Positions 2,779-54,996 of a stretch of DNA of 54,996 nucleotides are shown in pieces (within the stretch, counting starts at the first letter, position 1; each line of letters begins with the position of its first letter). The stretch is from a virus. Its lineage: Duplodnaviria > Heunggongvirae > Uroviricota > Caudoviricetes. Under the pieces are notes generated by a model. It made no database searches, had not been told where the DNA came from, and worked only from the letters and a program-made list of their open reading frames with translations. A program made the position numbers and the translations under genes. The stretch is taken from positions 1 to 54,996 of the IMG/VR virus record IMGVR_UViG_3300045988_171436, one strand, 5' to 3'.

Positions 2779-3603
2779 TCAGGCGGTGAAAGTACCAATA
2801 AAGGTTTCTACTTTGCTGTCCTTGAATTTCTCAACAAGCAGATCACGAAATTCGTTAGCCATTTCTTCCTGCACCGCCTCCAGCTGAATAATGCGTAGAA
2901 CCAGTACAGGACGATCGCCAGTGATAATACTGAGGCGTAATTTAAACGGACGTTCTTTCAGACCTTCAAACGGAACGCATTTAAATTCAAATGCCACTGG
3001 CATAATGTCTTTGGTCTTCGCTTCGACAGACTCCATCAGGGAGCGTTTGCCGCTGAAGTCATTATCTTCAAAATCAGCGGTCTGGTTTGCTTCAATCGTG
3101 ATTTTACGGACAGCCGCAGCCGCTTTTGTTGCCTGAATAGCGTCACCATTAGCATCAAAGCCCACAAGATAGTCGGCCCAGTCTTCAATCCATTCTGCCA
3201 GTGACTTCTGGGAGTTACGCTCGCCGTTAACAGACAACAGAGCAGAGAACGGTGCTGTCTTTTTCAGTTTGAGTGTGGCGGTGTTATCTGCGTGACCTGG
3301 TTCATCAATAGTACCCAGGTTAAGCACACTGACGGCACGCATATTATCAGCATCGATAAAGCAGCGGGTGCCTTCATCTGCAAGATCTTTAGAATAACGG
3401 GTAAAGTCATCGATGCTGGCAGTGGAAAGCGCACCACGGAAACGGAAGCGATTTAAATTAAATTTTTCCAGATCATGAATGCGGAAATTCTCAGGCAATG
3501 CCACAGCATCGGCACCAATCTTACTGATAATTTCATTAACACCCTGAGCAGAAATAAGGGCATGGATTTGATTAATTGCGGTTGCGTCTAAGTTCTGAGA
3601 CAT
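2779..3603 (-). CDS. DUF2303 (YfdQ-like) phage protein
   Basis: 274 aa; resembles prophage YfdQ-type proteins as remembered. Confidence 0.45.
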
Positions 3604-3668
3604 AATAAGTCCTCACTATATAAAGATATTCAGTGATGAGATAAATAATCAGTTAATTAAAAACGATA

Positions 3669-4031
3669 TTAACGACCTGCTGCGCGGAGTTTTCCGTCAG
3701 GTTCACCGGCAAGAGTCAGTAACTGTCCCTGGTCTTCCTGCAGAATAGTCAGGCGACCACCGCGATTGACATACATCGGCGTTTCGGTGGTGTCTTCTTC
3801 GGAAATTTTCCCGCGGTTAGTCGGGCGAACATATGAGAGTTTGTGTTTGATTTTCACTCGGTTCTCATCAAACGGTTCGATTTCCAGGTTGAGCGAGACC
3901 TTACCTTTGGTTTTCGTGTTCATCACACCGGAAGCGACTTCACTGAGAACTGCGCCGATTTTGGTTTCAAATACGCCGCCGTCCAGCTCCCCGATAAATG
4001 CCTGCACATCAGTACTGCGTTCGCTAGCCAT
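3669..4031 (-). CDS. Hypothetical phage protein (121 aa from internal ATG)
   Basis: Protein-like sequence begins at MASERSTDVQAF...; the N-terminal extension of ORF 3669..4349 runs through a GC-rich structured region and looks non-coding. Confidence 0.4.
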   Translation of the reverse strand: MASERSTDVQAFIGELDGGVFETKIGAVLSEVASGVMNTKTKGKVSLNLEIEPFDENRVKIKHKLSYVRPTNRGKISEEDTTETPMYVNRGGRLTILQEDQGQLLTLAGEPDGKLRAAGR

Positions 4032-4499
4032 TTTGCTGCTCCTCATCATATCGACCCTGCAAGGTCGGTTAGTTTCTCCACAAAACAGAGAAGAACACCT
4101 GCGGTGACTGCCGCCCGGATGGATTGGGTTATGAGCCCGTCGTCCGGTGATGCTCTTCTCTGTTTTGTAAAAAGGACGGTACCAGCCGGAAGCAAGGGTA
4201 CAAGCTGGTACCGCCAAGACTACACACAGCATAAAGTTGTGGTGCCGGGTGCCTCCCGGTGCCTGGCGAAGGTTGCACACCAGGCGGGTGGGTATCCACA
4301 GAAGGTCGACTGTCAGCCTCAACCTTAACCCGCGTGCGCTGAGCCGCATTCACCACAACGCTAAGGATTCTCTCTGGTTGAAAATACTTAGCTGTTATGT
4401 GCCTGCTTTTAGCCACATCAGGCGAGGTGGACCTAGTTATTCCCCAACAACAAGGATTCGGTTAATCTGGTTATCCCCAACAACGCAAAAGGAAAAGAA

Positions 4500-4934
4500 A
4501 TGTCCGGTAATATCTATACGCTGTACAAATCCCACTGTGAAAATGTTGGAAAGTATCGGGGCATTGAAATCAGTGGGGTAGTGTCATCAGTCGAAATAAG
4601 CAAAGTTGAATCAAGGGCAACATTACTTACTCTTTTGGACCTTGTCTTACATGAGCACCGGAAGAAATTCGGCACTCCCTATAATCAGTTGAATGGGAAA
4701 AAGGCTCTGGTTCACCTTATTCTGATGAAGCATCACTGGATGCCAAAACAGATTAATGAGATGAAATTTGATGAACTTCTTCTTTCAATTCAGGATGAAC
4801 TCACACTTGATAAAATAAGCGTAACCGCCCAGAAATTTTTAGATTATCGAGACTGGAGATCACAAATTCATCACTTTGATGATTTTGACGAAAATGAATG
4901 GGATCCTAATTTGTCTGCACAATATCTAAAGTAA
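4500..4934 (+). CDS. Hypothetical protein (144 aa), antisense moron in early-left region
   Basis: AT-rich ORF opposite to surrounding leftward genes; own upstream direct repeats and downstream terminator. Confidence 0.5.
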   Translation: MSGNIYTLYKSHCENVGKYRGIEISGVVSSVEISKVESRATLLTLLDLVLHEHRKKFGTPYNQLNGKKALVHLILMKHHWMPKQINEMKFDELLLSIQDELTLDKISVTAQKFLDYRDWRSQIHHFDDFDENEWDPNLSAQYLK

Positions 4935-5127
4935 CATCCTGTGATAAAACCGTGATTTCCTGATCCAGTTTTTTTAAGGAGTCTATTGTTTCCTGTCGAT
5001 AAGACAGCACTTCACGAAGCTGGTTTATAGCTGCCAGCTTCTTTGTCATCCACTCATAAATTTCCTCATCTGTGTAGCCAGGCGCGACGATTTTGGGTTC
5101 TGTTTTGTGCATTTCACATCTCCTCAA
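4906..5127 (-). CDS. Hypothetical small protein (73 aa)
   Basis: First gene of leftward operon downstream of the putative pL/OL region. Confidence 0.35.
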   Translation of the reverse strand: MRRCEMHKTEPKIVAPGYTDEEIYEWMTKKLAAINQLREVLSYRQETIDSLKKLDQEITVLSQDVTLDIVQTN

Positions 5128-5171
5128 GTTATCAGTTACTTGTTGATGGGGACCAGATTGTTAAAGAGCTA

Positions 5172-5194: not shown

Positions 5195-5360
5195 GTTGCT
5201 AACGAATCATCCTGGACTTCATATGCCCCAGGCGGCTACTTCGTGGGCGTCCTGCCTGTTCGTTTTTGACATTTACTGACTGCTTACGACACATGCACCG
5301 TGTTGCAACCAGATTTTGTTGTAATCCTGTAGTTGGTCTGGAACAAAAGATAAAATTAAA

Positions 5361-5397
5361 TTGCGAGATATGCAAGTGATGTTTGCGAAATATGCAA
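5361..5397. promoter_or_regulatory. OL-like operators: two direct TTGC-N7-GCAA sites
   Basis: TTGCGAGATATGCAA (5361-5375) and TTGCGAAATATGCAA (5383-5397); same half-site pattern as the OR site. Confidence 0.5.
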
Positions 5398-5410
5398 ATT
5401 TATAGGTAAT

Positions 5411-5451: not shown

Positions 5452-6144
5452 TTAATTATGTCTCTTAAGGGTTTGCGACTGACTGATTAAGACCTTTCCA
5501 AAGACCATGAATCGGTGTTCGTTTTCGCTAGTAATTCCCCATTCACGGTAAATCTGGTTATCAGAAATCACCAGCAGTTTGTCAGGAATCATTTGAAGTC
5601 TTTTAACGTATATTTTGTCATCAAAACCAAAGACATATATACCATCACCATCAAACTGATTGATGCTGACATCAACGAAGATGAGATCTCCTGGCTCAAT
5701 GGTTGGACACATACTGTCCCCACGAACGTTGATAACTTTGATGTGATTGGCTGGTCGTCCGCCGAACATTGATACAGCATTATCAGTTCTGTATTCGATG
5801 GCATGAATCACATCAATGACATCACCGCCCTGGATAAGGCCATTTCCCGCACTGGCACTGATATCCAGCATTTCAATACGGAACACATCCTTCACCTGCG
5901 CAACATCCTCATTATTACTGTTTTTATATACAGTATTACTTTTGTGGGCAGAGGTAAAGAGATCAGCAATATCAACACCTAAGCTCTTGGCAATATTACT
6001 CAGTGTTTGTTCGGTAAATTGTTTTTGCTTACCCGTTTCTAAGCGCGAGATGTTCGCCGCATCTACTCCTATTGCTTCAGCGAGATCGGCGATTTTCATG
6101 TTCTTCGCTTGGCGAAGTTGTCTGACTCGGTTTCCTATGTTCAT
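5452..6144 (-). CDS. cI: CI-like repressor (HTH-XRE plus S24 LexA-type peptidase domain)
   Basis: 230 aa; N-terminal HTH (IADLAEAIGVDAANISRLETGKQ); C-terminal GDSM serine motif and conserved Lys (VFGKVL) typical of autocleaving repressors; divergent from cro. Confidence 0.85.
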   Translation of the reverse strand: MNIGNRVRQLRQAKNMKIADLAEAIGVDAANISRLETGKQKQFTEQTLSNIAKSLGVDIADLFTSAHKSNTVYKNSNNEDVAQVKDVFRIEMLDISASAGNGLIQGGDVIDVIHAIEYRTDNAVSMFGGRPANHIKVINVRGDSMCPTIEPGDLIFVDVSINQFDGDGIYVFGFDDKIYVKRLQMIPDKLLVISDNQIYREWGITSENEHRFMVFGKVLISQSQTLKRHN

Positions 6145-6241: not shown

Positions 6242-6502
6242 ATGCAATCACCATTACGAAATGTGCGTAAGGCGCATGGTTTCACTTTGCAGCATGTTGC
6301 TGCGGGTGTTCAAGTCAATCCAGCGACGTTGAGTCGTATTGAGAGGCTGGAGCAGATTCCATCTATCGAGCTTGCAGAACGTTTAGCCAATTTTTTTAAG
6401 GGTGAAGTCAGCGAAATGCAGATTCTTTATCCGGCACGTTTTCAATCTAGCCAAAACCAGAATGGGTTTAAACCACAGGAACAGGAGGTGAACCGTGGGT
6501 AA
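6242..6502 (+). CDS. cro: Cro-like HTH regulator
   Basis: 86 aa with HTH (FTLQHVAAGVQVNPATLSRIER), divergently transcribed from cI. Confidence 0.7.
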   Translation: MQSPLRNVRKAHGFTLQHVAAGVQVNPATLSRIERLEQIPSIELAERLANFFKGEVSEMQILYPARFQSSQNQNGFKPQEQEVNRG

Positions 6503-7046
6503 GCATCACTGGAAAGTAGAAAAACAGCCTGAGTGGTACGTGAAAGCTGTCAGAAAAACTATCGCAGCGTTGCCGGGGGGGTACGCTGAAGCTGCTGACT
6601 GGCTGGATGTAACAGAGAACGCATTATTTAACCGCCTTCGTGCCGATGGCGATCAGATTTTCCCGCTGGGATGGGCAATGATTTTGCAACGTGCTGGTGG
6701 AACTCACTTCATTGCTGACGCTGTGGCGCAGTCTGCAAATGGCGTCTTTGTGTCTCTTCCTGACGTCGAGGATGTGGACAACGCCGATATTAACCAGCGC
6801 CTGCTGGAAGTCATTGAACAGATCGGCAGTTATTCAAAACAGATTCGTTCAGCAATTGAAGACGGTGTAGTGGAACCGCATGAGAAGACAGCAATTAACG
6901 ACGAGCTGTACCTCTCAATTTCGAAGCTGCAGGAGCATGCAGCACTGGTCTACAAAATTTTTTGCATTTCAGAAAGTAATGACGCCCGCGAGTGTGCAGC
7001 TCCGGGCGCCGTGGCGTGTCGTGACTGTGGAGAAACTAACGCATGA
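6495..7046 (+). CDS. Early regulatory protein (CII/YdaT-like, tentative)
   Basis: 183 aa immediately after cro; family assignment from memory only. Confidence 0.35.
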
Positions 7047-18660: not shown

Positions 18661-20390
18661 GCCGGAAATCTTACCCCAACGTAAATGCTGCCAATCAGTA
18701 TGCCCGGGATGTCGTTCGCGGAAAGATTGTGGCCTGCCAGTTTGTGATTCAGGCCTGCCAGCGCCATCTTGATGACCTGATGGCGGAAAAAAGTAAGTCG
18801 TTTCGTTACCGCTTCGACAAGGACCTGGCTGAACGGGCCGCCAAATTTATTCAGCTGTTGCCGCATACCAAGGGTGAGTGGGCATTCAAACGGATGCCCA
18901 TCACGCTGGAGCCGTGGCAGCTCTTTGTGATCTGCTGTGCGTTTGGCTGGGTCAATAAAGGTACCCGGCTGCGCCGCTTCCGGGAGGTGTATACCGAAAT
19001 CCCCCGTAAGAACGGCAAATCGGCAATCTCTGCCGGTGTCGCCCTGTATTGTTTTGCCTGTGATAACGAGTTTGGCGCGGAAGTGTATTCCGGTGCCACG
19101 ACAGAGAAACAGGCGTGGGAAGTCTTTCGCCCGGCGCGACTGATGTGTAAACGCACACCCATGCTGACGGAAGCGTTCGGGATTGAGGTTAACGCCTCAA
19201 ACATGAACCGTCCGGAGGATGGCGCGCGGTTTGAGCCGCTGATCGGTAACCCCGGTGATGGTTCATCACCCCACTGTGCGGTGGTGGATGAATATCACGA
19301 GCATGCCACCGATGCACTTTACACCACGATGCTTACCGGGATGGGGGCGCGACGTCAGCCACTGATGTGGGCCATCACCACCGCCGGGTACAACATTGAG
19401 GGGCCGTGCTACGACAAGCGGCGGGAAGTTCTCGAGATGCTCAACGGTTCGGTACCCAACGATGAACTGTTCGGGATCATCTATACCGTTGACGAAGGCG
19501 ATGACTGGACCGACCCGCAGGTGCTGGAAAAAGCCAATCCAAATATTGGCGTGTCGGTTTATCGCGAATTTTTGTTAAGTCAGCAGCAGCGTGCGAAAAA
19601 TAACGCCCGTCTGGCAAACGTCTTTAAAACAAAACACCTCAATATCTGGGTGTCGGCGCGTTCGGCGTATTTCAACCTGGTGAGCTGGCAGAGCTGCGAG
19701 GATAAATCACTGACCCTTGAGCAGTTCGAGGGGCAGCCGTGCATTCTGGCCTTTGACCTGGCGCGTAAGCTGGATATGAACAGCATGGCGCGACTTTATA
19801 CCCGCGAGATTGACGGTAAAACGCATTACTACAGTGTGGCCCCGCGTTTCTGGGTACCGTATGACACGGTGTACAGCGTCGAGAAAAATGAAGATCGACG
19901 GACAGCCGAACGCTTTCAGAAATGGGTGGAAATGGGCGTTCTGACCGTTACCGATGGTGCGGAAGTGGATTATCGCTACATCCTCGAGGAGGCCAAAGCG
20001 GCGAACAAAATCAGCCCGGTCAGTGAGTCACCCATCGACCCCTTCGGGGCGACCGGGTTGTCACATGACCTTGCTGATGAAGACCTGAATCCCGTCACTA
20101 TCGTCCAGAACTTCACCAATATGTCCGACCCGATGAAAGAGCTGGAAGCGGCGATTGAATCGGGACGTTTTCATCATGACGGCAATCCCATCATGACCTG
20201 GTGTATCGGCAACGTGGTCGGCAAAACCATTCCGGGTAACGATGATGTGGTGAAGCCCGTCAAAGAGCAGGCGGAAAACAAAATCGATGGTGCAGTTGCG
20301 CTGATTATGGCGGTTGGCAGAGCCATGCTGTACGAGAAAGAAGACACGCTGTCTGACCACATTGAGTCCTATGGGATCCGCTCGCTTTAA
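18657..20390 (+). CDS. Terminase large subunit
   Basis: 577 aa with Walker A-like PRKNGKSA and C-terminal nuclease-like region; canonical position. Confidence 0.85.
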
Positions 20391-42264: not shown

Positions 42265-43098
42265 TCAGTTAGTAACGTCGGAATCTTCATTCTCAGAATG
42301 ACCCTTTCTCCAGCCCGCTGCAAATTCAGACGGTGTCTGATAATTCAGCGTGGAGTGCGGGCGGCATTCGTTATAATCCTGCCGCCAGTCATTAATAATT
42401 TTCCTGGCATGAACGATATCGCTGAACCAGTGCTCATTCAAACATTCATCGCGAAATCGTCCGTTAAAGCTCTCAATAAATCCGTTCTGCGTTGGCTTGC
42501 CCGGCTGGATTAAGCGCAACTCAACACCATGCTCAAAGGCCCATTGATCCAGTGCACGGCAAGTGAACTCCGGCCCCTGGTCAGTTCTTATCGTCGCCGG
42601 ATAGCCTCGAAACAGTGCAATGCTGTCCAGAATACGCGTGACCTGAACGCCTGAAATCCCAAAGGCAACAGTGACCGTCAGGCATTCCTTTGTGAAATCA
42701 TCGACGCAGGTAAGACACTTGATCCTGCGACCGGTGGAAAGTGCGTCCATGACGAAATCCATCGACCAGGTTAGATTGGGCGCCGCCGGACGGAGCAGCG
42801 GCAGACGTTCTGTTGCCAGCCCTTTACGACGTCTTCTGCGTTTTACGCCCAGACCACTGAGGTGATAAAGCCGGTACACGCGCTTATGATTAACATGAAG
42901 CCCTTCACGGCGCAGCAACTGCCAAATACGACGGTAGCCAAAACGCCTGCGCTCCAGTGCCAGCTCAGTGATGCGCCCTGATAAATGCGCATCAGCAGCC
43001 GGACGGTGAGCCTCATAGCGGCAGGTCGACAGGGATAAACCTGTAAGCCTGCAGGCACGACGTTGCGACAGACCGGTCGCATCACACATCAACATCAC
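42265..43098 (-). CDS. IS3-family transposase OrfB (DDE integrase domain)
   Basis: DDE-type catalytic region (WSMDFVMD ... TDQGPEF ... [16 protein letters not shown]). Confidence 0.85.
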
Positions 43099-43121
43099 GG
43101 CTTCCCGCTTCTGGTCTGTCG

Positions 43122-43385
43122 TCAGTACTTTCGCCCAAGAGCCACCTGAAGCGCCTCTTTATCCAGCATGGCTTCGGCAAGCAGCTTCTTGAGTCTGGTG
43201 TTCTCTTCCTCAAGCGACTTCAGGCGCTTAACTTCAGGCACCTCCATACCGCCATACTTCTTACGCCAGGTGTAAAACGTGGCATCGGAAATGGCATGCT
43301 TGCGGCAGAGTTCACCGGCGGGTACCCCAGCTTCGGCTTCGCGGAGAATACTGATGATCTGTTCGTCGGAAAAACGCTTCTTCAT
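43122..43385 (-). CDS. IS3-family transposase OrfA (HTH)
   Basis: 87 aa, HTH plus leucine-zipper-like C-terminus, directly upstream of orfB. Confidence 0.85.
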
Positions 43386-54672: not shown

Positions 54673-54996
54673 AAATATTCCTTGGGGTATTCAGATAAGT
54701 TTCCTTTCAATAAACACATATGCTGCACACTTTTACACGACTAATACTGCACAAATGCTTTACGAAAACACACTGAGTACACAGGAATACACAATACGTA
54801 CACAGATTCACAACGGCAAATGTAGGGCAGGACATGTAAAGTAGGCCCACCGTAAACGGTGCTTCTACTTTACCTTCCCTTATTCGCAGCTGAGCTGCTC
54901 AACGGAGTCCTGCTCTGCGAGGCTGATCGGCTACCGCCTGTATGAACCGCCCCGGGTTTCCTGGAGAGTGTTTTATCTGTGAACTCAGGCTGCCAG

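Follow-up and report, generated by a model that had tools for sequence, protein, structure and literature searches.

The small RNAs STnc100 (Rfam RF02076), PasD1 and PasD2 are encoded in prophages of Salmonella, EHEC and EPEC, and PasD and STnc100 are of common ancestry (bioRxiv 10.64898/2026.05.13.724894). Northern blots of PasD1 and PasD2 revealed Hfq-dependent RNAs (PMC8550237), and in EDL933 eleven STnc100 copies are transcribed, one of which was verified by northern blot (PMC5331693). Two further small RNAs, KilS and DicF, belong to the early-left 'kil' operons of lambdoid prophages: KilS (b4833) lies in the 5′ UTR of kilR in the Rac prophage and DicF upstream of dicB in Qin. KilS has been validated by northern blot and is present in Hfq RIL-seq data (PMC8175672). 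Here we describe a prophage leader in which an RNA domain of the STnc100/PasD class is followed by a KilS-like module. The RNA family is known; the variant found here, its pseudoknot and the unannotated copies before dicB and kilR of E. coli K-12 appear to be undescribed.

The window, that is the whole stretch of viral DNA that was analysed (54,996 nucleotides, IMG/VR record IMGVR_UViG_3300045988_171436), is an SfIV/SfV/ST64B-like prophage located at tRNA-Thr. The start codon of yfdP is the ATG at 4031-4029, and this gene is followed by yfdQ, yfdR, yfdS/T-like genes, xis and int. Genes for cI, cro and cII, recognised with PHROGs and Pfam, are found 1-3 kb to the right of the leader. An earlier note had described the spacer between yfdP and the gene at 4500 as a GC-rich, structured intergenic region between divergent genes, and had suggested that it might be a structured leader, encode an sRNA, or serve in regulation or recombination. 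The two genes are indeed divergent, yfdP being on the minus and an ECs1072-family gene on the plus strand. The region is probably the untranslated minus-strand leader of the early-left operon yfdP-yfdQ-yfdR-...-xis-int of a lambdoid prophage, and would double as a small-RNA locus. The following features were located:

3669-4031, minus strand: yfdP, 120 aa, phrog_204, first gene 3′ of the leader
4050..4069, minus strand: small hairpin seen in the fold, directly 5′ of the yfdP Shine-Dalgarno sequence GAGGAG (about 4045-4040)
4080..4168, minus strand: long hairpin, about 25 bp, its tip branched, separating the terminator from yfdP (inverted repeat; MFE and centroid structures)
4169..4231, minus strand: KilS/DicF-like module, consisting of seed and terminator
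4231-4211, minus strand: single-stranded seed UGCUGUGUGUAGUCUUGGCGG
4215-4175, minus strand: terminator hairpin, holding the perfect 9-10-bp inverted repeat
4173-4169, minus strand: U-tract
4236..4359, minus strand: core of the STnc100/PasD class, 'G' subtype, 124 nt, five-helix junction with pseudoknot
4359-4351 with 4244-4236, minus strand: helix P1
4347-4343 with 4337-4336 and 4334-4332, minus strand: helix P2, A4335 bulged
4331-4328 with 4289-4286, minus strand: helix P3
4284-4278 with 4268-4262, minus strand: helix P4
4259-4255 with 4249-4245, minus strand: helix P5, loop AGGCA
4326-4320 (AAGGUUG) with 4275-4269 (CAACCUU, in the P4 loop), minus strand: pseudoknot
4360..4392, minus strand: 5′ hairpin abutting the 5′ side of P1 (inverted repeat of 13 nt, 85% complementary; MFE and centroid structures)
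4393..4432, minus strand: upstream block CCACCUCGCCUGAUGUGGCUAAAAGCAGGCACAUAAC, conserved together with the core in phiES15, SfV and Klebsiella phage Kp4882-1
4437-4451 and 4471-4484: direct repeats TTATTCCCCAACAAC and TTATCCCCAACAAC, read directly; on the minus strand they read GUUGUUGGGGA(A)UAA
4500-4934, plus strand: ECs1072-family gene, right flank
5158..5169, minus strand: exact rrn-type boxA GCUCUUUAACAA, preceded by a hairpin, within the predicted PL transcript; same strand as the core and about 800 nt before it
5346..5400, minus strand: predicted early-left promoter PL, containing a pair of operator-like repeats (TTGCATATTTCGCAA, TTGCATATCTCGCAA), immediately to the left of the cI terminator (from sequence)

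All sequence features of the earlier note were recovered, at or within 1-3 nt of where it had placed them. The 17-bp inverted repeat lies inside a longer one with arms of 25 nt (4080-4104 / 4144-4168, 84% complementary), and the perfect 9-bp repeat is in fact 10 nt long (4177-4186 / 4204-4213). The further stems reported up to about 4300 exist and extend beyond that position; a perfect 9-bp long-range pair, 4236-4244 / 4351-4359, had been missed. The G+C content is raised as described (0.53-0.59 over 4001-4400), but the flanks are not both AT-rich, with values of 0.35-0.44 in the right gene and 0.49-0.50 in the left gene. The earlier note left the strand unstated; the relevant one is the minus strand. 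From 4440 to 4020 (421 nt) this strand folds at -177.5 kcal/mol compared to -139.9 +/- 5.7 kcal/mol in shuffled sequences (z = -6.6), and none of 100 shuffles folded as well. In 5′ to 3′ direction the leader consists of a hairpin, the core, the KilS-like seed and terminator, the hairpin of about 25 bp and the small hairpin before the ribosome binding site.

An Rfam/Infernal scan, as suggested in the earlier note, returned STnc100 (RF02076) on the minus strand only. The match reaches 43.4 bits, under the 47-bit gathering threshold, spans model positions 1-206 and has E-values of 5e-8 in a 751-nt search and 3.7e-6 in the whole window. With R1, a covariance model purpose-built from 66 family members, the core was recognised at 87.2 bits (E = 2e-20), the sole real match in the window. 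A second R1 match at 19278-19384 (9 bits, E = 0.85) was attributed to chance. No second copy of the core, as a putR-like partner would be, was found in the window, including its rightward operon, by the Rfam E-value scan and R1. The core has the secondary structure of STnc100: a CCGGG-AGGCA-CCCGG hairpin is stacked on the closing helix, one hairpin follows GGUGAAU, and there are internal hairpins.

With STnc100, PasD1 and PasD2 the window copy thus has in common the core architecture and the near-invariant motifs GGUGAAU...[P2]...[P4]...CACCGGGAGGCACCCGGCACC. The core is likewise followed by a short single-stranded stretch and then an intrinsic terminator, and the hosts are again lambdoid prophages of Enterobacterales. 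Besides the score below the family threshold, the window copy differs in its subtype, which has a compensated P2 (GCGGC...GCACGC), another P3 and another pseudoknot. Its seed and terminator are KilS-like, it is located in an early-left leader and not in the Q-to-lysis region, and no promoter abutting P1 was found by consensus scan, whereas many canonical members have a candidate one. The pseudoknot is absent from the structure line of the Rfam STnc100 family and is not mentioned in the 2026 Pas preprint (bioRxiv 10.64898/2026.05.13.724894).

The comparative covariation analysis, another check named in the earlier note, showed that all five helices and the pseudoknot covary. The fraction of paired cells was 93%, compared to 73% in shuffles and about 40% when the partners were slid, and 24 of the 30 base pairs show changes on both sides. 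P2 is wholly compensated between subtypes (CCCCC/GGNGGG versus GCGGC/GCACGC), and P5 varies from CCGGG/CCCGG to CCUGG/CCAGG. At the pseudoknot, where 65 different complementary sequence pairs were found, the median complementarity was 7 nt for cognate and 4 nt for non-cognate pairs (p = 1e-28), and at least 6 nt of complementarity was present in 79% of the cognate compared to 23% of the non-cognate pairs. These compensatory changes keep the pairing and not the sequence, which speaks for RNA helices rather than DNA sites. Variation is concentrated in the stems; the junction and loop nucleotides GGUGAAU, the P2 loop U-N-N-G-C and the P5 loop AGGCA, of which GGA is always kept, are near-invariant. 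Taken together, the near-threshold STnc100 match, the R1 score, the compensatory changes in all helices and the KilS-homologous terminator module described below support the reading as a structured leader or sRNA.

The same changes bear on the idea that the features act as DNA, with the direct repeats as operators and the inverted repeats as binding sites for proteins or recombination sites. Both direct repeats upstream of the gene at 4500 are present where they had been reported. Allowing up to two mismatches, the 13-mer TATCCCCAACAAC occurs at just two places in the 55-kb window, which are the direct repeats themselves; this count is no more than expected by chance, as 39 of 100 shuffles gave two or more matches. 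What speaks against coincidence is that the repeats stand side by side and are kept together with the RNA element in a Klebsiella phage. In Kp4882-1 and PhiR29_1 both are found upstream of the core, PhiR29_1 having another gene beyond, and they are absent from SfV. The description of the repeats as promoter-proximal was not borne out: no adjoining sigma-70 promoter was found, and the repeats travel with the RNA element and not with the gene at 4500. As sequences of 14-15 nt, 34 nt apart and beside a divergent gene start, they could be regulator sites, and the mosaic recombination joints at about 4217, 4430 and 4484 might also be taken to favour a DNA-level reading. The joints, however, simply mark module boundaries, and the compensatory changes preserve pairing and not sequence. 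We found no support for a recombination site and regard a DNA-level explanation of the features as very improbable, while the direct repeats taken alone may have a role at this level.

A protein-coding origin had to be weighed as well, since RefSeq annotates in SfIV a 226-aa gp34 across the leader, and PGAP calls a 'frameshifted hypothetical protein'. In the window and near-identical relatives the yfdP frame is open for 318 nt upstream of the ATG, so that the region could encode a long YfdP (226 aa, ORF 3669-4349, as SfIV gp34) or a degraded gene. Against this, the alignment to the ST64B leader contains three gaps (1, 20 and 1 nt) whose lengths are not divisible by three, and the substitutions are spread evenly over the three codon positions (25/24/26). 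In addition, the open frame is shorter in L102 and mEp460, the same core precedes unrelated genes in other frames, K-12 YfdP has 120 aa, and the covariation of the RNA is strong. We give a coding function almost no credence; to judge from these sequence comparisons the region is non-coding, in contradiction to the SfIV gp34 annotation. The six-frame ORFs are thus artefacts, as the earlier note had assumed, and the hok-like peptide it had considered found no support, the coding test giving no codon signature.

Directly 3′ of the core, positions 4231-4169 align locally to positions 34-98 of Rac KilS, and in the first 21 nt, the seed, 20 of 21 nucleotides are identical. Seed, terminator hairpin and U-tract, on which homology of the KilS/DicF type is judged, are all present, and the mapped 3′ end of KilS lies at the U-tract homologous to that of the window (PMC8175672). 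The match to the DicF Rfam model is weak (19.4 bits, E = 0.14, far under the 48-bit gathering threshold); the Rac KilS region itself reaches merely 39 bits on this model. The terminator hairpin and U-run were detected with a purpose-written lenient detector and are missed by a stricter scan because the loop has 17 nt. With this unusually large loop and only five U, the efficiency of the terminator is uncertain. In ST64B the corresponding position is occupied by a terminator that differs in sequence. In a crude test using RNAduplex, pairing of the window seed, KilS and DicF with the translation start of ftsZ did not exceed that of shuffles for any of the three, DicF included.

Like KilS and DicF, the module belongs to an early-left operon of a lambdoid prophage and has the same core domain as its immediate neighbour. 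The order of the elements differs, being core, KilS-like module and gene in the window, and KilS or DicF, core and kilR or dicB in Rac and Qin. Moreover, the 5′ hairpin of KilS is absent from the window, and the downstream gene is yfdP and not a known division inhibitor.

The long hairpin beyond the terminator is kept in ST64B with both arms changed (GAGAAG/CUUCUC to GAAAAG/CUUUUC), and it is 92-98% identical in many Stx and mEp460-like phages having a different core. We infer that it is an RNase III-type processing site or a stabiliser of read-through transcripts. At the position of the small hairpin, ST64B carries a hairpin of wholly different sequence (GGCGG...CCGCC).

When complete E. coli genomes were searched, sequences matching 4033-4499 were found in 2782 of 5426. 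The element is nowhere annotated as an RNA, and in some records it is mis-annotated as protein. R1 also revealed unannotated matches in E. coli K-12, one between dicF and dicB and one between kilS and kilR, as well as in the ban operon of P1 (before tciA) and in many prophages of Enterobacterales. The K-12 CPS-53 yfdO-yfdP spacer does not contain the element. In ST64B, 118970_sal3, phiES15 and mEp460 the core is located after the repressor and before the early-left genes in the same orientation, and elsewhere it precedes dicB, kilR or a lambda-type kil gene. Canonical members are stand-alone genes, some of them in arrays of 3-5 copies with no ORF between. Matches of a P5-motif pattern scan in high-G+C Actinomycetota and others were due to chance, as R1 confirmed only Enterobacterales with two exceptions. 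One is a weak match in an unclassified Pseudomonadota MAG (28 bits, E = 2e-4), the other, strong at 88.8 bits, comes from a contig of 388 nt that is labelled as Prolixibacteraceae and is probably a contaminant.

The core always lies on the sense strand, with a terminator about 15-25 nt later or a start codon 30-45 nt later; in 25 loci dicB follows at exactly 32 nt. Using the lenient detector, a hairpin with U-run was found in 135 of 140 family members. Its median distance from the conserved P5 motif was 24 nt, which places it about 15-20 nt past the end of P1. Many members of the subtype of the window core have no terminator and stand 30-45 nt before a start codon, so the core must also be functional, or at least tolerable, simply as part of a 5′ UTR. 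This placement before small toxic proteins could indicate that the core is a cis-acting, aptamer-like sensor or binding platform for a metabolite, a host protein or the ribosome, and not a mere scaffold for an sRNA; it would act on the adjacent terminator, as in the window, or on how the next gene (dicB, kilR, kil, tciA) is translated or how stable its RNA is. A multi-helix junction with a covarying pseudoknot is typical of RNAs that bind ligands or proteins, the near-invariance of junction and loop nucleotides amid variable stems fits the same picture, and in Qin, Rac and Kp4882-1 the P1 helix reaches about 20 bp, which resembles RNAs that are excised or processed. The canonical members, however, are unlike a classical riboswitch in standing alone with a promoter and a terminator of their own; terminator and antiterminator pairings that exclude each other are not evident in the window, as core and terminator both form in the MFE structure, and no ligand or partner can be named. 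We consider such a cis-acting sensor unlikely. For the invariant GGA loop and the P1/P5 stack, the sequence alone also brings to mind CsrA, anti-Shine-Dalgarno, tRNA-like or RNase P readings, which are no more than ideas.

We next turn to the position of the leader in its transcript. Two consensus scans detected no sigma-70 promoter near the direct repeats or within 130 nt upstream of the core. Among canonical family members a consensus scan found a promoter-like site in 54 of 95 upstream regions, and in 31 of these the -10 element ends 7-9 nt before GGUGAAT. The block at 4393..4432 could form additional structure or belong to a promoter that escaped recognition. Visual inspection of the window, SfV and Kp4882-1 yielded weak promoter candidates only. 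The leader of yfdP lies about 1 kb downstream of the predicted PL, and the stretch 4906-4032, roughly 870 nt, is untranslated. We infer that the site at 5346..5400 is the early-left promoter, given that TTGC-N7-GCAA repeats like those found there are also present between cI and cro; in mEp460 the arrangement is homologous. The rrn-type boxA in the predicted transcript is the sole exact match in the window. In 13 loci the 12-mer precedes the core on the same strand by 700-1010 nt, against a chance expectation of 0.2.

To judge from its layout, the locus would be a positional analogue of HK022 putL/putR and of lambda nutL with the RNase III hairpin of the N leader: a structured RNA comes after PL and ahead of the first early-left gene, and terminators and a long hairpin, possibly an RNase III site, follow it. 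The core might then be a put-like RNA that modifies its own RNA polymerase, as HK022 putL does, and so allows read-through of the terminator and the early-left operon. Apart from this position, no N protein is recognisable in this phage group, none like it was found among the neighbouring ORFs by PHROGs and Pfam, and the P1 copy is part of the leader of the long, multi-gene ban operon. However, the put RNA has two stems in about 70 nt (PMC9378689) and is located after both PL and PR; it is not a five-helix pseudoknot, and the window has a single core with none in its rightward operon. Sensitive blastn and R1 showed no similarity between the core and the HK022 PL-nun region, in which putL was located by eye, and R1 finds nothing in the HK022 immunity region. 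The stand-alone relatives give distinct terminated transcripts about 200 nt long, the opposite of self-antitermination, and in Qin and Rac the core lies 3′ of the terminator. The boxA of the operon could take the antitermination role instead. It lies 800 nt upstream of the core, and no boxB-type N site was recognised, further differences from the put and nutL systems. Put-like antitermination by the core therefore seems quite improbable to us.

The structures exist, covary and are homologous to RNAs known to be expressed. On this analysis, the core and KilS-like module are most likely a leader that terminates part of the early-left transcripts and releases a small RNA. Upon loss of the cI-type repressor, leftward transcripts, probably beginning at PL near 5350 and carrying the rrn-type boxA, would cross the region. 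Some would stop at the U-tract (4173-4169) and free a stable RNA of core, seed and terminator, which could act in trans via Hfq as KilS, DicF, PasD and STnc100 do. The remaining transcripts would read through, probably be cut in the 25-bp hairpin, and then serve for expression of the genes from yfdP to int. The terminator would thereby set the ratio of sRNA to operon mRNA and limit read-through into yfdP-int, in an arrangement that would parallel DicF-dicB in Qin and KilS-kilR in Rac. The core would serve as a conserved scaffold, possibly as a stability element or binding platform.

One conserved pseudoknotted domain links the STnc100/PasD sRNAs of pathogens, K-12 DicF and KilS, the 5′ UTRs of dicB and kilR, whose products inhibit division, and the leader of the P1 ban operon, four groups that were previously treated separately. 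It is conceivable, although we hold it only tentatively, that this core of 110-140 nt is an autonomous functional RNA domain that binds or senses a conserved host component or small molecule and is not a passive structure of the sRNA. In that case temperate phages of Enterobacterales would use it both as a stand-alone sRNA body, as in STnc100 and PasD, and as a cis element before the toxic early genes dicB, kilR, kil and tciA and before early-left operons, and the two unannotated copies in K-12 would control dicB and kilR. These K-12 copies make the element testable with standard genetics. If the core has a function of its own, it would offer a new handle on the gating of toxic early genes by prophages and on the modular construction of small RNAs.

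At its start the window carries the 3′ part of a tRNA gene, and next to it an integrase gene. Over positions 3600-5000 the identity is 99-100% to Escherichia phages Kati and SfIV with their relatives, and likewise to E. coli prophages located at tRNA-Thr beside proA. Leftward of yfdP lie, in order, yfdQ, yfdR, yfdS/T-like genes, xis and int. This order, with int to yfdP on one side and cI-cro-cII on the other, identifies the region at 4032-4499 as the untranslated stretch before the first early-left operon gene of a lambdoid prophage. The genes and the elements of this leader are as follows.

Genes and leader elements
Right-hand end at 4031, minus strand: yfdP, 120 aa
4069-4050, minus strand: short hairpin before the ribosome-binding site
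4168-4080, minus strand: long inverted repeat of about 25 bp, which the earlier note had seen
4173-4169, minus strand: U-tract
4215-4175, minus strand: terminator hairpin
4231-4211, minus strand: single-stranded seed, UGCUGUGUGUAGUCUUGGCGG, directly after helix P1
4359-4236, minus strand: 124-nt RNA core, helices P1-P5 and a pseudoknot
4500-4934, plus strand: ECs1072-family gene
Right of the ECs1072-family gene, minus strand: small phrog_1744 gene
5452-6144, minus strand: cI-type repressor
6242-6502: cro
6495-7046: cII

The earlier note, made from the sequence alone, had described a GC-rich, highly structured region that might be a structured leader or an sRNA. All inverted and direct repeats that it listed are present, and the G+C content indeed peaks at 0.59, but the left-hand gene is not AT-rich (0.49-0.50), the one overstatement of that reading. 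The minus strand from 4440 to 4020 folds at -177.5 kcal/mol, compared to -139.9 ± 5.7 kcal/mol for dinucleotide shuffles (z = -6.6). The leader of ST64B is 78% identical to that of the window; the gaps in this comparison measure 1, 20 and 1 nt and the substitutions are spread 25/24/26 over the three codon positions, which rules out coding, as the note had supposed. In place of the terminator ST64B has another hairpin and U-tract; the pairing of the long hairpin is preserved via changes on both arms, and an unrelated sequence forms the short hairpin at the same place. Two existing annotations were rejected, as the comparative evidence indicates non-coding RNA: the 226-aa gp34 'hypothetical protein' across the leader in RefSeq SfIV (L001 4070-4750) and the 'frameshifted' pseudogene of E. 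coli 2009C-3133 (L002 5014-5324).

At gathering thresholds Rfam reports no match in the region, which explains why it is left blank or called protein in genome annotation. When 3900-4650 was scanned by E-value instead, one of the checks that the note had proposed, STnc100 (RF02076) matched over its full length at 4389-4166, minus strand, with E = 5e-8 and 43.4 bits (gathering score 47), and the terminator part matched DicF weakly. A sensitive BLAST search of phages revealed some 135 nt (4365-4231) in common with ST64B, 118970_sal3, Cronobacter phiES15, P1/P7 and RCS47, each of which matches STnc100 partially (model positions 31-147). In ST64B, a match to C4 antisense RNA (79.7 bits) adjoins one to isrK (64.3 bits) in the early-right region (L005 409-597, minus strand), unrelated to the leader. 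Elsewhere in the window, an IS1222 ribosomal frameshifting element is matched over its full length (156.6 bits, 43038-43155, minus strand), so that an IS3-family insertion sequence is present, and a full-length match to the traJ-II RNA motif (95 bits, 54825-54924, plus strand) lies at the right-hand edge, far outside the prophage early region.

Family members were collected by two pattern scans of viral contigs, anchored on the 3′ and the 5′ motif; the first alone gave 143 instances in 94 distinct forms, and both combined gave 136 distinct cores. From 66 aligned representatives and a written nested structure (P1-P5) we built a covariance model, R1. In the window R1 has a single convincing hit, at 4236-4359 on the minus strand (87.2 bits). 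The named phage relatives score 75-88 bits and a divergent version in mEp460 scores 30 bits; the HK022 immunity region and CPS-53 of K-12 give no hit. Genome-scan members confirmed by R1 in Enterobacterales come from Escherichia, Shigella, Salmonella, Citrobacter, Enterobacter, Klebsiella/Raoultella, Kosakonia, Cedecea, Pantoea, Rahnella and others. Outside this list R1 confirmed a 388-nt contig labelled Prolixibacteraceae (88.8 bits), which is probably contamination, and weakly (28 bits) an unclassified Pseudomonadota MAG. Pattern matches in high-G+C phyla were not confirmed and are chance. The strongly divergent mEp460 core (L181 2356-2490) retains GGUGAAU, P2 and a CCGG-AGAUCAGCA-CCGG hairpin; this phage has the terminator, the long hairpin and yfdP in common with the window. 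Its divergence, in the sole such core inspected, implies a family wider than Rfam or R1 captures. Stx2c-type phages share only 4033-4217 of the window.

Covariation was counted in a model-guided alignment of 102 hits (100 distinct). Standard pairs fill 93% of paired cells, compared to 72.8% after column shuffling and 38-46% when partners are slid by 1-3 columns, and 24 of the 30 pairs changed on both sides (shuffled mean 18.7). None of 500 shuffles reached the observed value in any covariation measure. Fitting the alignment to the model biases these figures in favour of the structure, but the compensations are still plain in raw MAFFT alignments. Canonical members, for instance, have CCCCC...GG(N)GGG as P2 where the subtype of the window has GCGGC...GC(A)CGC, with the U-N-N-G-C loop and the bulge retained in both; P5 is CCGGG-AGGCA-CCCGG or CCUGG-AGGCA-CCAGG; and P1 changes from GUUGUGGUG/CACCACAAC to GUUGCGGUG/CACCGCAAC in P1 phage.

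In addition, AAGGUUG just inside P3 (4326-4320) is complementary to CAACCUU in the P4 loop (4275-4269). This pseudoknot reads AAGGCUG/CAGCCUU in phiES15, UGGUUAU/AUAACCA in P1, and CCAGUC/GACUGG, GAACUGGCA/UGCCAGUUC, AGACUGACA/UGUCAGUCU or CAGUUAA/UUAACUG in other members. Among 86 distinct segment/loop combinations, cognate partners have a median longest complementary run of 7 nt and non-cognate partners one of 4 nt (Mann-Whitney p = 1e-28); runs of at least 6 nt occur in 79% versus 23%. In all, 65 different sequence pairs were counted. The structure line of Rfam STnc100 does not include this pairing, and the word pseudoknot is absent from the 2026 PasD/STnc100 preprint.

The cores fall into two subtypes, the canonical 'C' (STnc100, PasD) and the 'G' of the window. 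C cores are mostly located between Q and the lysis genes and usually have a sigma-70 promoter with a -10 element ending 7-9 nt before GGUGAAU, so that the transcript starts at P1. A terminator follows soon after (median 24 nt past the P5 motif), and arrays of up to five copies occur. In some viral contigs, STnc100-type tandem arrays comprise three to five units on one strand, spaced about 250-260 nt, each apparently with its own promoter and terminator (L078 4379-5460 and 8379-8516; L039 1725-3286; L020 2325-3351; L030 372-989). C-subtype members are stand-alone sRNA genes, and according to published data relatives are expressed, Hfq-dependent and of low ribosome occupancy.

G cores have no evident promoter and always lie within operons in sense orientation: after the repressor and before the early-left genes in ST64B, 118970_sal3, phiES15 and mEp460, 32 nt before dicB in 25 viral contigs, and before kilR, a lambda-type kil gene and P1 tciA (ban operon). 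E. coli K-12 MG1655 itself carries two unannotated copies, between dicF and dicB in Qin (80 bits with R1; L179 2955-3082) and between kilS and kilR in Rac (75 bits; L180 3263-3391, minus strand); the start codons of these two division-inhibitor genes, dicB and kilR, follow after 32-45 nt. Here the sRNA module precedes the core, and P1, extended to about 20 bp as in Klebsiella phage Kp4882-1, may be a substrate of RNase III. The core may act as a sensor or binding platform, a role favoured by its junction-plus-pseudoknot architecture, its near-invariant loops and its fixed short distance to toxic-gene start codons; promoter-to-terminator stand-alone copies and arrays argue against a classical riboswitch.

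In the window the order is core, then module. The seed and terminator stretch aligns with positions 34-98 of KilS, with 20 of 21 seed positions identical. KilS is an sRNA in the kilR 5′ UTR of the Rac prophage, seen in Hfq RIL-seq and confirmed by northern blot, and its 3′ end lies at a U-tract homologous to that of the window (PMC8175672).

Left of the cI terminator, a plausible -35/-10 pair is flanked by two operator-like repeats, TTGCATATTTCGCAA and TTGCATATCTCGCAA, which resemble the repeats of the cI-cro interval. The same arrangement leads straight into the core of mEp460, and on these grounds we infer the early-left promoter PL near 5350. The predicted PL transcript would contain an exact rrn-type boxA, GCUCUUUAACAA (5169-5158, minus strand), preceded by a hairpin, cross the phrog_1744 gene, run antisense through the ECs1072-family gene and reach the leader after about 900 nt. 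In 13 loci (window, L001, L002, L025, L059, L102, L117, L121, L127, L149, L163, L172 and L182) this 12-mer is found on the strand of the core, 700-1010 nt upstream of it, with 0.2 expected by chance. No recognisable N protein was found in this phage group. The boxA suggests that Nus factors may protect the long untranslated early-left stretch against Rho.

Between PL/cI and the leader, each phage compared has a different opposite-strand gene (the ECs1072-family gene here, sieB in Rac, unrelated ORFs in PhiR29_1, SfV and Kp4882-1), as expected of a slot for exchangeable morons or exclusion genes. The direct repeats are real. They and a conserved 40-nt block (4393-4432) are found with the core in the Klebsiella phage and also in PhiR29_1, which has a different gene beyond; SfV is without the repeats. 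As they move with the core while the gene beyond differs, they belong to the upstream region of the RNA unit and not to the gene at 4500, beside which the note had placed them; no promoter or binding protein could be linked to them.

A dual-purpose leader is the reading with the best support. Some of the early-left transcripts would end at 4169-4175, giving an RNA of core, seed and terminator of the STnc100/PasD/KilS kind, and the remainder would read through, probably undergo processing within the long hairpin, and express the genes from yfdP to int. A core acting as an antiterminator like put of HK022 is weakened: it has no similarity to put, the window lacks a rightward copy, the core is placed after the terminator in Qin and Rac, and, as the main count, stand-alone relatives accumulate as terminated RNAs. 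In the literature examined we found no description of the pseudoknot, the G subtype, the swapping of modules or the copies in front of K-12 dicB and kilR. The feature is real, and the note was in essence correct to see a structured leader or sRNA, which belongs to a known prophage sRNA family as a divergent variant embedded in an operon and joined to a KilS/DicF-like module.
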